Origin: a virus
Taxonomy: Duplodnaviria > Heunggongvirae > Uroviricota > Caudoviricetes
Length of the DNA: 43,729 nucleotides
Reading direction: 5' to 3' (one strand)
IMG/VR virus record: IMGVR_UViG_2711768013_000010
In this document: one piece after another, positions 34,198 to 38,807 of the stretch
Position numbering within the stretch: the stretch's first letter is position 1
Layout of the letters: each line of letters starts with the position of its first letter
Made by a program: the position numbers and the translations under genes
Notes under the pieces: model-generated
Seen by the model: the letters and a program-made list of their open reading frames with translations, nothing else
Databases searched by the model: none
Told to the model about the DNA's origin: nothing

Positions 34198-34437
34198 ATG
34201 TCAGATATAAAAAATGCACTTGATGTTGCCGCATTCACAATGGCTGGAAATCTTATGGTAACCCTGTTCGATAAGGGGCTGATTTCCCGTGAGGAGGCAA
34301 TACATATTATCAATCTCGCTCAAAAAAACTCTACCCCGGAAAATGCAGAAGATATCCAGGATGGCTCATATATTAATACCGACTGGCATTTCGACAATCT
34401 CCGGGCCTGTATGGGGATTACCGCTGAAAAAGATTAA
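34198..34437 (+). CDS. hypothetical small protein, opposite strand to the prophage operons
   Basis: 79-aa ORF with Shine-Dalgarno AAAGGA ~8 nt upstream; AT-rich; converges on and overlaps the 3' end of the next gene by ~20 nt. Confidence 0.45.
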   Translation: MSDIKNALDVAAFTMAGNLMVTLFDKGLISREEAIHIINLAQKNSTPENAEDIQDGSYINTDWHFDNLRACMGITAEKD

Positions 34438-34720
34438 AAATTTTTGCATAATGTTCAGATGTAAGAATTGCTGAACCATCAACACCGAGCCTACGGCGAA
34501 CGTATTCCTCGCGGGCTATTTTATTATCCAGAGATACAGCATCCTTAATCAGGTTAATCTCCCGCTCCATTATCAAAAGGGCTTCTCTGGCTGCAAGATT
34601 TTCTTTTATCGCATATTCGATAATGTCCCGCATACGTTCAAGCATGCCGATTTTAGCCAGTTCTTCGTCGATAGATTTAGGCGCAAATTTGATTTCTTTT
34701 TCCATATTATTCATCCTCAC
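34418..34720 (-). CDS. hypothetical coiled-coil protein
   Basis: 100-aa ORF, AT-rich, GTG start with alternative ATGs 2 and 5 codons in. Confidence 0.5.
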   Translation of the reverse strand: MRMNNMEKEIKFAPKSIDEELAKIGMLERMRDIIEYAIKENLAAREALLIMEREINLIKDAVSLDNKIAREEYVRRRLGVDGSAILTSEHYAKIFNLFQR

Positions 34721-34850
34721 AATTTATACATGCAGTGTCGTCGCCCATATCGCAGTGGTTACATTTTATCTCACCACAATGTGGGCACTCTTTCAGATAC
34801 TCCGGGTCCTCATTTCCACAGGTGGGACATTCAACAATTTGCTCATCCAT
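34707..34850 (-). CDS. small Cys-rich zinc-ribbon protein (47 aa), not in ORF track
   Basis: Hand-translated minus-strand ORF MDEQIVECPTCGNEDPEYLKECPHCGEIKCNHCDMGDDTACINCEDE with paired CxxC motifs; start overlaps upstream gene stop by 8 nt; coordinates +/- 2 nt. Confidence 0.4.
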   Translation of the reverse strand: MDEQIVECPTCGNEDPEYLKECPHCGEIKCNHCDMGDDTACINCEDE

Positions 34851-35175
34851 TATGTATCCCCTGTAATTCCGGCAAGGCCGAAAGATGGCACCAGTGCGTC
34901 ACCTGTCCGTCCTCATCTTCAAGGCAGGCTCCGGTTTCTTCATCAATAAAAAAGCCTTCATACCCCATATGGCCGATGCGCAGTTCCTGTTGGTCACCAT
35001 ACTGAACAATCAGCACGACAGCCTCCATATCAGGCGGAAATGCGTCATCCAGTGAATGCCAGGGATAACCGCGCAAATCCCCGAAATAAACGCCGGTCAG
35101 CGTTCCGCCACAGAGCGGCATTCCGGCGGCACACACAAGAGGTTCATCTGATTCAACAAATAAGGTCGTTATCAT
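34843..35175 (-). CDS. hypothetical acidic protein
   Basis: 110-aa ORF in the early accessory block. Confidence 0.55.
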   Translation of the reverse strand: MITTLFVESDEPLVCAAGMPLCGGTLTGVYFGDLRGYPWHSLDDAFPPDMEAVVLIVQYGDQQELRIGHMGYEGFFIDEETGACLEDEDGQVTHWCHLSALPELQGIHNG

Positions 35176-35723
35176 GGCGTTAACTCCCGTAATACAGCGT
35201 CCTCGGCAGTCCGGCGACGGTAATAAACTGCGTGAGCAGAATGTTCAGATATTCCAAACTTTTCGCCAATTTCCCGGAATGACAGACGGCGTGGGTAATC
35301 GGAATCACGCAGCTCACGTATAAGACGTACATCATCATCAGATATGCGCGTGCCGGGGCGTAACTCTCCGCACTTTGTTAATCCAGCACCAATCATTCCT
35401 GCCCGACATCTGACAGAATCTTTATTACGTCCGAGATATTCTCCCATTTGCTGGCAGGTCATTGTTCTGGCATTTTTTCGAATAAACTTATCTTCATCAG
35501 GTGTAAATCTTGGGTGTTTATATTTCAGTAACTCCGGGTATGAACTGCGCAATACACCAGTCCGGTTATATACAGCCCAGACAGTTCTTTTTATTCTGGC
35601 AGCAATATCCTTAACCGGGGTGGATGAATAAAGCGCAATCAGCAGCGCATCTTCTTCAGGTGTCCACGGACGGACATGAGCGGGGGCGCGACCTTTTAGT
35701 CCCATGGGTTGTAATTTCATCAT
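35172..35723 (-). CDS. putative DNA-binding protein (Myb/SANT-like repeats plus C-terminal HTH)
   Basis: WTPEEDALLIALY.. and FTPDEDKFIR.. repeats; C-terminal LSFREIGEKFGISEHSAHAVYYRRR resembles a sigma-70 region 4/LuxR-type HTH. Confidence 0.5.
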   Translation of the reverse strand: MMKLQPMGLKGRAPAHVRPWTPEEDALLIALYSSTPVKDIAARIKRTVWAVYNRTGVLRSSYPELLKYKHPRFTPDEDKFIRKNARTMTCQQMGEYLGRNKDSVRCRAGMIGAGLTKCGELRPGTRISDDDVRLIRELRDSDYPRRLSFREIGEKFGISEHSAHAVYYRRRTAEDAVLRELTP

Positions 35724-35726
35724 GCA

Positions 35727-36242
35727 TCACCCCCTGACTCGCTTTTCAGCAGCATAAAACTCATCAGACAGTATTTCGGTCATTTTCTGTTTTGCGGGTT
35801 TTACGCCGCACTGAAGGTAAATCACATCGTCAACGCAGAACCACTTCACAGGGCCAAACAGGATTGCCGAGAAATCAATACCCAACCAGAACAACAGCGC
35901 ATCGGTTCTGGCATACGTGACGGGCGAATATTCACGCCACAGACTGTTCAGTTCATCAGAGGCAACACGCAGGGTTTTAGGGATACGTGATGTGCGCGGT
36001 GTGCAGCTCCAGCCATTCGACGCAGTCGGTTTTCGCCATAAGTCGCGATGAAAAGGATATTTGTCCTCCGTAAAACGCAGTCCCTTAAAGTAAAATCCAC
36101 TGATACCGGATACAAATACCGACCGGCACGCAACATTCAGCACGGCCTCAAGGCGTTTTGCCTCATCCTTAACTTTCTGGCAGTCCTGCTGGTATTTTTG
36201 CCACGCAGCCAGCGCGGAAGGGTTTGATGTTTTAAAGAACAT
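35727..36242 (-). CDS. hypothetical protein
   Basis: 171-aa ORF in the early accessory block. Confidence 0.55.
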   Translation of the reverse strand: MFFKTSNPSALAAWQKYQQDCQKVKDEAKRLEAVLNVACRSVFVSGISGFYFKGLRFTEDKYPFHRDLWRKPTASNGWSCTPRTSRIPKTLRVASDELNSLWREYSPVTYARTDALLFWLGIDFSAILFGPVKWFCVDDVIYLQCGVKPAKQKMTEILSDEFYAAEKRVRG

Positions 36243-37451: not shown

Positions 37452-37462
37452 TTTGTTTTTCC

Positions 37463-37783
37463 TTATTGCAGTGTGCCTGATGCTTTATGCACGCGGTGGC
37501 GTTTAATGATGGCATCCGCTCCAAAAGACTGTGCAGATGCCTGAAATTCCGCTGAGAGAAACTGAATAATTGCAGGACTGTGATACTGGAGAATACTTGC
37601 ATAAACGTCACAGAGTGACGTCGGCCTGTTATCCGTATCACGTTCTGTTTTCACATCCACTCCAATCTTTTCATGCACTTCAACACAGTCATTGCCTGCC
37701 AACTTTTCGTCATGCGAAACATGATTAAATTCAAAAATAACGCGTACTTTGCTCATGGAATTACCCCTGTTGATTAAATTCAT
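37463..37783 (-). CDS. hypothetical protein, tandem paralog 2
   Basis: 106-aa ORF starting MSKVRVIFEFNHV; paralogous N-terminus to the adjacent gene; AT-rich. Confidence 0.5.
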   Translation of the reverse strand: MNLINRGNSMSKVRVIFEFNHVSHDEKLAGNDCVEVHEKIGVDVKTERDTDNRPTSLCDVYASILQYHSPAIIQFLSAEFQASAQSFGADAIIKRHRVHKASGTLQ

Positions 37784-38033
37784 TACCGTTAATAACCCCG
37801 GAAGCCATGCCTCTGTCTTTCATGAATGCACTGGCTTTCATTGCCACAAACTCTGCGAAGTTTCTGCTTTCTGCCAGCATAACCACCCCAAAAATCATGG
37901 CGGGTCCATTATCTTTCTTCTTTATTCCGGTTGAACGTATATCCAGACTTACCCCTCTGTGCGTGCTGCCATCAGAGTTTTTGCAGATAACATCTTCCTT
38001 GTATTCGAAAATAATGCGTACGACTTTACTCAT
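37761..38033 (-). CDS. hypothetical protein, tandem paralog 1
   Basis: 90-aa ORF starting MSKVVRIIFEYKEDV; AT-rich. Confidence 0.5.
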   Translation of the reverse strand: MSKVVRIIFEYKEDVICKNSDGSTHRGVSLDIRSTGIKKKDNGPAMIFGVVMLAESRNFAEFVAMKASAFMKDRGMASGVINGNEFNQQG

Positions 38034-38311
38034 CCTCTGGTCCTCGTTCTGTTTGGATAACTGACCCGGCGTCTAACCTCACGGCAGAACCGAATCATGG
38101 CATTAAAGGCTTCTTCCTCCGTCACCGCTTCCGGTATCCCCGGAACCAGTAACTGCTCCTGTTCATCACGTCCATGACGCGCCATAACCTCAATCACATG
38201 CCGTACCGTGGCAGGCTTTCCGGCAACTATCGGCAATGCACCTTCCGGCAGGACGTAACCAAACTCAATAAGACCACTCGACCACGCCCATGCAATGAGA
38301 TTTTTTTTCAC
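38030..38311 (-). CDS. hypothetical protein
   Basis: 93-aa ORF, early accessory block. Confidence 0.5.
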   Translation of the reverse strand: MKKNLIAWAWSSGLIEFGYVLPEGALPIVAGKPATVRHVIEVMARHGRDEQEQLLVPGIPEAVTEEEAFNAMIRFCREVRRRVSYPNRTRTRG

Positions 38312-38312
38312 C

Positions 38313-38579
38313 TCACACCTCCCAGTAAACCGTGCAGCCGCTGATGCGGGTGGCCTTCACACGGCGGCGCAGGCCGTTGGTCTGTATGGTGATTTCAATT
38401 TCACCGGTTCCCTGCACGTTGCCTACCGGCGGCGTGGTTTTCAGTGCAAAACGTTGCGGATAGCGCTTACTGCGTTCCAGTACCGCACCGGCAAGTTCGG
38501 TCAGACGGCGCGCGCTGTTCAGGGAGTCGAATAAATTCATTTTGTTACCGCAGGATTGCATATTCATATAACACCTCAT
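38313..38579 (-). CDS. hypothetical protein
   Basis: 88-aa ORF, early accessory block. Confidence 0.5.
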   Translation of the reverse strand: MRCYMNMQSCGNKMNLFDSLNSARRLTELAGAVLERSKRYPQRFALKTTPPVGNVQGTGEIEITIQTNGLRRRVKATRISGCTVYWEV

Positions 38580-38807
38580 TTAGCTGACTTGTTTCGCACC
38601 AACAGAACGGCATATTCCGCTGTAAACTTCTGTCGCACCTTCGCGATCAAGTCCGGCAGATATCACCATTCGTGTGCGGTCATTAAATTCAAAAAGTAAA
38701 TCGCCACATTCTTTATTTTCGGCCAGTGAAATCACCTTCACGTTATCGAAATTAACCAGGTAAAAGCGTCCGTAAATATCAGGAATATTAAATACCGCCA
38801 TAATCAC
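38580..38807 (-). CDS. hypothetical protein at the position of Mu kil (first gene after B)
   Basis: 75-aa ORF immediately downstream of B; positional inference only. Confidence 0.45.
   Translation of the reverse strand: MIMAVFNIPDIYGRFYLVNFDNVKVISLAENKECGDLLFEFNDRTRMVISAGLDREGATEVYSGICRSVGAKQVS

Follow-up and report, generated by a model that had tools for sequence, protein, structure and literature searches.

Mu-like transposable phages carry strings of small accessory genes in their left arms. In phage Mu, the semi-essential region lies between B and gemA, is tightly packed and includes Gam, a Kil-family protein and a gene on the opposite strand beside gemA. In Mu-like phages of Pseudomonas, left-arm accessory "regions of genomic plasticity" are an established concept (Cazares et al., 2014, PMC4378225). 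Moreover, the Gabija system is licensed by, or senses, the Gam and GemA proteins of one Mu-like phage (PMC12407980), and hence the early region of such phages does meet host defence. We analyzed a block of small genes at positions 34198-38807 of the IMG/VR virus record IMGVR_UViG_2711768013_000010 (Caudoviricetes), a stretch of 43,729 nucleotides (nt) that we call the window. The block very probably belongs to a transposable prophage of the Mu family in Escherichia coli, as the semi-essential, or accessory, segment of its early operon. It is comparable to both the Mu region and the Pseudomonas plasticity regions, and it is a reasonable but unproven place to search for anti-defence functions.

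The position of the block within the prophage carries the first part of the argument. At its right end, the window holds the left arm of a prophage of the Mu family, whose genes are read on the minus strand in the order c repressor (on the plus strand), ner, A, B, the block, gemA, mor and lysozyme, with B, GemA, Mor, transposase A and Ner all assigned by Pfam. Both the list of open reading frames (ORFs) and the RefSeq annotation of an identical chromosome place the block between B and gemA, and its limits run from the start of the opposite-strand gene w79 to the start of the first gene past B. Over 5 kb, the block matches the chromosome of E. coli strain 600029 at 100% identity. Of 5426 complete E. 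coli genomes, 233 (about 4%) carry related copies, the majority of them 90-95% identical. In a phage collection, matches were restricted to two Shiga toxin (Stx)-converting phage records, where the region is annotated as an inserted Mu-like phage. This prophage family is common in E. coli genomes, including copies inserted in Stx phages.

Besides Gam, the block holds 12 ORFs of 47-183 amino acids (aa), of which 11 are encoded on the minus strand and w79 on the plus strand (Table 1). A reading of the sequence without database searches (hereafter the sequence-only reading) had counted about 13 of them; its description of small uncharacterized genes of that size between B and gemA agrees with the ORF list and the RefSeq annotation. 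Spacings between genes mostly range from -14 to +11 nt, the exceptions being -23 nt (if the long start of w106 is used) and two gaps of 145 and 290 nt. Each of the ORFs has a PHROG family match (E 3e-26 to 4e-105) and displays, among E. coli relatives (9-43 loci), a ratio of non-synonymous to synonymous substitutions (dN/dS) of 0.09-0.37. In addition, the exact sequences of ten ORFs (w93 and w47 left out) occur on up to 1000 or more public contigs, nearly always under the name "hypothetical protein". RefSeq leaves w47 unannotated and sets the starts of w75, w88, w106 and w100 slightly later. Judged by these comparisons, all 12 ORFs are real genes, conserved in relatives and under purifying selection. 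Regarding composition, w75, w90, w106, w47, w100 and w79 have a guanine-plus-cytosine (GC) content of 39.6-43.8% against ~54% for the backbone, as the sequence-only reading had noted for several genes, and the most variable genes coincide with the AT-rich ones. Minimum identity among relatives falls to 54% for w90, 59% for w106, 69% for w183 and 73% for w75; w88, Gam and B are nearly invariant.

The second part of the argument comes from a gene-by-gene comparison with the annotated Mu genome (NC_000929, kil/gp5 to gp15 at 4315-8162). Gam is 57% identical to Mu gp10, w177 68% to gp11, w171 55% to gp12, w100 49% to gp14 and w47 88% to gp13 across 41 aa. Profile comparison pairs residues 66-168 of w183 with residues 5-96 of Mu gp9 (hhalign probability 97%, E 6e-11). 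Two further matches are weak: w88 resembles Mu Kil (gp5) over its C-terminal half only (33% identity; hhalign probability 71%, E 4e-5), and w79 matches the N-terminal 38 aa of gp15 (hhalign E 3e-4) while sharing its position and its opposite strand. Seven of the 12 ORFs hence have homologues or positional equivalents in Mu (kil, gp9, gp11, gp12, gp13, gp14 and gp15). No counterpart of Mu gp6, gp7 or gp8 was found in the block and, conversely, none of w75, w93, w90, w106 and w110 in the Mu genome. The proposed equivalence to the Mu semi-essential region thus holds by position, Gam and shared genes. That the genes differ from those of Mu is correct only in part: it applies to these five genes and to the absence of gp6-gp8, and not to the seven shared ones; the opposite case, in which all ORFs would be homologues of characterized Mu genes, is not what the comparison returned. 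The Mu versions of the shared genes are likewise uncharacterized, save kil and gam, and our literature search on Mu gp7-gp14 returned no paper.

Beyond gene identity, both phages share the B-gemA position, tight packing, Gam, the gp11-gp12 pair, the gp13 zinc ribbon and gp14, as well as an opposite-strand gene beside gemA, a Kil-family protein, a gp9-type protein with Myb and helix-turn-helix (HTH) features, and a conserved stem-loop downstream of gam. They differ in that w75, w93, w90/w106 and w110 occur only here and gp6, gp7 and gp8 only in Mu. Furthermore, the gp9-type gene has three repeats here and follows gp12, whereas that of Mu has two and precedes gam; Kil is here the second gene after B and not the first; and the proteins in common are only 27-88% identical.

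A third line of evidence is the mosaic structure of the block, which we compared across 59 related loci (Mu, annotated E. coli chromosomes and contigs from IMG/VR). Relatives show at least three sites where genes are swapped, between B and gam, between gam and gp11, and between gp12 and gemA. The B-gam stretch measures 576-1717 bp among relatives. In about ten of them, w93 is lost but for a 66-nt remnant, a Mu gp8-like gene stands in its place, and Gam is kept. The gam-gp11 gap is 148 bp here and in ~17 relatives, 101 bp in Mu and 645-671 bp in most relatives, where it is filled by a DUF5420-like gene or an unrelated 180-aa gene. In the window, this gap retains an apparent ribosome-binding site and the start of a cargo gene, fused to a remnant ORF of 14 codons. 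The gp12-gemA stretch varies from 395 to 2860 bp: the window carries the Mu-type gp13-gp14-gp15 module, and other loci carry either DUF2513 on the opposite strand, accompanied by two further small genes, or a set of four unrelated genes on the same strand. Direct or inverted repeats flanking the slots were short and at chance level only. As w93, w183, the gp13-gp15 module and the gam-gp11 cargo are each missing from some intact-looking relatives, these losses lend indirect support to the view that the block may be dispensable for plaque formation. The gene map to Mu separates out the lineage-specific genes, and the sites at which variable cargo is swapped are located. Of note, a distant relative (L046, 4538-5116) has in its gam-gp11 slot a 192-aa gene whose N-terminus looks like a MazG-type nucleotide pyrophosphohydrolase, a resemblance that Pfam at E 0.01 did not confirm.

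Similar arrangements are found further afield. In Mu-like phages of P. aeruginosa (D3112/DMS3 group), short accessory ORFs also sit at fixed left-arm insertion points, the slot being empty or filled with differing cargo, and the w93 family is common to both, as DMS3-12 and as the gene downstream of gam in JBD phages. These phages belong to another host lineage, their gene families differ beyond Gam, GemA, Mor and w93, and their anti-CRISPR locus lies in the head-gene region and not in this block. The nin and ea regions of lambdoid phages, of which DUF551-type proteins are typical (w110 being a borderline match to that family), are likewise strings of small, dispensable, packed early genes shuffled among relatives; they differ in phage type, regulation and replication mode, and gene-for-gene homology with the block was not found.

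Table 1. Features of the early region of the prophage, in the order of the minus strand (positions in the window).
Feature	Positions	Strand	Description
c repressor	42325-42870	+	
B	38804-39745	-	Flanks the block
w75	38580-38807	-	75 aa (RefSeq 73 aa), first after B; phrog_3375 (E 1e-46); GC 41.7%
w88	38313-38579	-	Kil family, second after B; phrog_2679 "Kil protein" (E 8e-46)
w93	38030-38311	-	Large unnamed family of small proteins in transposable-phage early regions; PHROG 1518
w90	37761-38033	-	Tandem paralogue, copy one; phrog_4107 (E 2e-54)
w106	37463-37783	-	Tandem paralogue, copy two; phrog_2230 (E 3e-38)
Gam	36921-37451	-	Pfam Phage_Mu_Gam PF07352 (E 6e-42)
gam-gp11 intergenic region	36776-36920	-	Empty cargo slot with stem-loop
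Post-gam stem-loop	36852-36880	-	GGCGC...GCGCC, ~45 nt past gam
w177	36242-36775	-	Mu gp11 homologue; Pfam Gp11_C (E 6e-41)
w171	35727-36242	-	Mu gp12 homologue, basic protein
w183	35172-35723	-	Three tandem repeats, probably Myb-like HTH; phrog_323 (E 5e-53)
w110	34843-35175	-	Very acidic protein
w47	34707-34850	-	Mu gp13 homologue, acidic zinc ribbon; phrog_5584 (E 3e-26)
w100	34418-34720	-	Mu gp14 homologue; phrog_6075 (E 6e-44)
w79	34198-34437	+	Positional equivalent of Mu gp15; phrog_32893 (E 1e-45)
w79-gemA intergenic region	34128-34197	-	Terminator-like hairpin at 34150-34169
gemA	33615-34127	-	Flanks the block
Second terminator-like hairpin	33587-33610	-	In the gemA-mor gap

Gene set, homologies, mosaic structure and purifying selection can be read from the sequence; the functions that follow are those we infer. 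After induction, the block would be transcribed together with ner, A and B as a tightly packed and, probably, largely translationally coupled unit. Its content would be of two kinds: a conserved Mu-type set (the Kil-like protein, Gam, gp11-gp12, the gp9-type Myb/HTH protein, gp13, gp14 and the antisense gp15-like gene), and a lineage-specific set, mostly AT-rich and fast-evolving (w75, w93, w90/w106 and w110), at recombination hot spots that hold other cargo in relatives. Gam, a Ku-like DNA-end-binding protein, would cap DNA ends against RecBCD-type nucleases and is the only gene of the block with a family of established counter-nuclease role. The Kil-like w88 probably arrests host growth or division, and the gp9-like w183 and gp11 may bind DNA or regulate. 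The genes w75, w93, w90/w106, w110, gp13 and gp14 would most likely bind host proteins or DNA during takeover, and w79 is possibly expressed from its own promoter in the lysogen. Several points weigh against this account. Functions beyond that of Gam rest on family names or composition; w88 resembles Mu gp5 weakly, with 33% identity over 39 aa, and does not occupy the Mu kil position; the terminator-like hairpins on either side of gemA could mean that the operon is not one unit; and promoter and terminator scans returned sites no more numerous than in shuffled sequence.

Small early proteins of this kind had been proposed by the sequence-only reading as the place to look for anti-defence or host-takeover factors, and the block was compared with known families. 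PADLOC-DB 2.0 gave no match for the 12 ORFs, Gam, gemA or six representative cargo proteins from the slots of relatives, and NCBIfam none for any ORF; membership of the block genes in a defence or anti-defence family was hence rejected with respect to these two collections. Pfam recognized Gam and Gp11_C and otherwise returned sub-threshold Myb, HTH and zinc-ribbon matches. Sequence searches of the PDB found no relatives for w93, gp11, gp12, w183, w75, w110 or w90, and fold searches gave no informative match. Gam apart, no gene of the block matches a characterized anti-defence protein at this level of comparison. The earlier statement that no defined system could be named is therefore upheld, and its suggestion that profile or structure searches might reveal an anti-defence or defence family led to no such family, Gam aside. 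An arms-race role is fitted circumstantially by the swap hot spots, by AT-rich, fast-evolving alleles and by one very acidic protein.

It is tentatively conceivable, if on the improbable side, that at least one of the lineage-specific early genes encodes a dedicated counter-defence protein, a reading to which the known interaction of Mu-like early regions with defence (PMC12407980) lends some plausibility. The lead candidate is w110, which would act as a DNA mimic and inhibit restriction or some other host factor that binds DNA. Indeed, w110 is small and strongly acidic, a trait of DNA mimics of the Ocr and ArdA type, with an isoelectric point of 4.05, a net charge of -17 and only 2 basic residues. 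Its conservation is unusually good: identity is 78-83% at loci where B is 57-79% identical, making it the best-conserved small gene across the E. coli and Salmonella lineages, the only ones in which it was seen. On the other hand, w110 has no sequence or fold similarity to a known DNA mimic, and its AlphaFold2 model is of low confidence (predicted local distance difference test score 57.5) and gave no meaningful fold match. The sole hint is a match to Pfam DUF551 (PF04448), a family of unknown function, spanning profile positions 2-67 of 68 and scoring 14.6 bits where 22 are required (E 0.062). With a score below the gathering threshold, w110 was not counted as a member, and it is possibly a divergent DUF551 domain.

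The pair w90/w106 could, under the same reading, provide inhibitors that track variable host targets. Both genes show the highest dN/dS values of the block, low GC and discrete allele classes: w90 falls to 54% amino-acid identity with a dN/dS of 0.34, and w106 forms two allele classes (~60% and >92% identity) with a dN/dS of 0.37. Their tandem paralogy, claimed by the sequence-only reading, is confirmed at sequence level but weak (22% identity, BLAST E 0.013, profile E 4e-4). Intermediate sequences link the two proteins, both begin with MSKV(V)R(I)IFE, and they fall into a single cluster, of which 39 loci carry two copies each. The true start of w106 is likely at 37756, giving 97 aa as in RefSeq. 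Homology of w90/w106 to Mu gp7 was tried and rejected, profile signal being nil. A third candidate is w93, which would pair with the end-binding protein of the slot occupied by Gam or DUF3164. What speaks against counter-defence for all of these genes is that none resembles a known anti-defence protein in sequence or fold and that dN/dS stays well under 1. Should a counter-defence activity be demonstrated for one of them, the few such factors known from transposable phages would gain a new member, with relevance to a prophage family that also reaches Shiga-toxin strains.

For w93, the evidence is entangled with its name. Proteins of this type are called "host nuclease inhibitor" in public records and in PHROG 1518. 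The family comprises 983 clusters at 50% identity, with most of the top matches being stand-alone proteins of 80-120 aa, and it is absent from our local Pfam and NCBIfam copies; a translated search located it in 65 Pseudomonas Mu-like phages. In the D3112 "gam" ORF of 266 aa, w93 matches only residues 176-248, and the Pfam domain covers residues 19-156. Such 266-aa ORFs are present in D3112 (NC_005178, 7567-8367) and MP38 (7575-8375), whereas DMS3, JBD24, JBD26 and JBD93 have one ORF for gam and another for the w93-type gene, joined at TGAcATG. In both the D3112 and MP38 records, one A is missing at gam codon 156, so that 17 out-of-frame residues replace the conserved C-terminus of Gam and run into the next gene. 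A Gam-w93 fusion in D3112 as a Rosetta-stone link was accordingly discarded, the alignment of six phages showing that it rests on the one missing A that destroys this C-terminus. The name "host nuclease inhibitor" has most probably been carried over, as far as the alignments tell, from the frameshifted D3112/MP38 gam ORF. As it probably traces to a read-through gam ORF, the label, borne by hundreds of w93-type proteins, is not to be read as evidence of function. No homology of w93 to the Gam domain was found, nor, in the literature, an experimental basis for nuclease inhibition or any paper devoted to the w93-type domain.

What is left for the family is its genomic neighbourhood. It lies directly after gam in Casadabanvirus, where the coupling to gam in DMS3/JBD phages appears translational; in a Trabulsiella prophage it immediately precedes gam. 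Among Mu-like prophages of the Salmonella type and from metagenomes, it is beside or near DUF3164, which there takes the position of Gam, and in L117 it is directly downstream. DUF3164 may be a functional replacement of Gam; in three loci without Gam, it was observed at the Gam position with a Pfam E of 6e-79 (L049 4332-4970, L112 4538-5155, L117 3379-3999). The w93 family could partner the DNA-end protein of the Gam slot, be it Gam or DUF3164, in a two-part system that would protect or process the ends of phage DNA and would have been hidden by the annotation error, with w110 or w90/w106 being, independently, new defence inhibitors; we hold this combined proposal to be improbable. Against w93 as a counter-defence partner, the gene is deleted in the prophages mentioned above that retain Gam, and its family also occurs in phages without Gam; two non-Mu-like phages carry it as well. 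Longer members of the family revealed no known domains, and the best fold match of w93 is to MbtH-like proteins, with nothing significant in the BFVD fold search.

Turning to w79, which the sequence-only reading had rightly singled out as an opposite-strand gene, it might be a moron expressed from the repressed prophage and provide a benefit to the lysogen (phage exclusion or defence) and not an early lytic role. This gene runs antisense to the early operon, is preceded by an intergenic region of its own and has a low GC, and Mu has a gene of the same orientation at this position. In the same slot, relatives bear a different gene, DUF2513, on the same opposite strand. Against these features stand a weak promoter-like match upstream (9 of 12 positions), the absence of any PADLOC match for w79 or DUF2513, and the protein itself, which is short (79 aa), acidic and devoid of a recognizable domain; we consider the moron reading quite unlikely. 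Finally, the missing annotation of w47 and several ambiguous start codons could suggest that a number of the small ORFs arose by chance and are not genes; this reading is effectively refuted by the PHROG matches (E <= 3e-26 for every ORF), the dN/dS values, the recurrence of exact proteins and the identity of w47 to an annotated Mu gene.

The block also contains genes for which further details were obtained. w75 alleles are 73-99% identical in relatives (dN/dS 0.21), and the protein has no match in Pfam, NCBIfam, PADLOC or PDB; a resemblance to the Mor dimerization region (E ~2e-4 in tiny BLAST and hhalign searches) was dismissed, no Mor chain appearing in the PDB-wide search. For the near-invariant w88 (dN/dS 0.09), no Kil family match was returned by our local Pfam copy. 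Two Pfam families, Kil_protein (PF26843) and Phage_Mu_Gp12 (PF26885), appear in precomputed annotations of the loci L112 and L113; neither came up for w88 or w171 in the local scan, either because they are missing from the copy or because the scores are sub-threshold.

w177 looks like an N-terminal winged-helix domain followed by Gp11_C. Its stop codon overlaps the start of w171 by 1 nt, and gp12 is predicted to be translationally coupled to gp11. As relatives of gp12 are also found in non-Mu phages of Klebsiella, Vibrio and Acinetobacter, gp12 is not tied to transposition. The Myb/SANT-plus-HTH protein of the sequence-only reading is w183. Its score with Pfam Myb_DNA-binding is 19.7 bits where 24.4 are required, and those with HTH models likewise fall short of their cut-offs; three repeats are visible in the sequence, and the homology to Mu gp9 is clear. 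Its PHROG family is annotated as a transcriptional regulator, and some Salmonella-type relatives are without the gene. In Klebsiella phage LASTA (NC_054965), which is not Mu-like, a gp12-like gene and a w183-related Myb-repeat gene lie less than 3 kb apart (50304-50585 and 53222-53695), which hints that both genes travel together.

The Cys-rich zinc-ribbon protein of the sequence-only reading is w47, with four CxxC motifs, a net charge of -12 and a dN/dS of 0.19. Its gene shares 8 nt with the end of w110 and was left out of the identical RefSeq chromosome despite its identity to Mu gp13 and purifying selection. w79 converges on w100 with a 20-nt overlap.

Regarding non-coding elements, the stem-loop past gam is conserved at the nucleotide level in the prophage, its relatives and Mu (NC_000929, ~6368-6397), with a fold of -15.6 kcal/mol (z -2.2) here and -14.8 kcal/mol (z -2.6) in Mu, and cargo genes are inserted just downstream of it. 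A short peptide encoded across it is not conserved owing to a 1-nt indel relative to Mu; as the nucleotides are conserved and the peptide is not, the element is more consistent with an RNA or DNA element than with a micro-ORF. Pattern scanning and folding also revealed, in the direction of early-operon transcription, a terminator-like hairpin with a U-run 13 nt before the start of gemA (-13.2 kcal/mol, z -2.5), and a second GC-rich one of the same orientation, also with a U-run, lies in the gap of 70 nt that separates gemA from mor here, whereas the two genes overlap in Mu. The hairpins bracketing gemA could make expression of gemA and mor partly independent of the early transcript. A search for RNA families in 32000-43729 found none. 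At the other end of the early region, just outside the repressor, an IS66-family Orf2 (TnpB_IS66, E 1e-37) is located at 43104-43427 on the minus strand, which indicates that the prophage abuts, or sits in, an IS66-type element.

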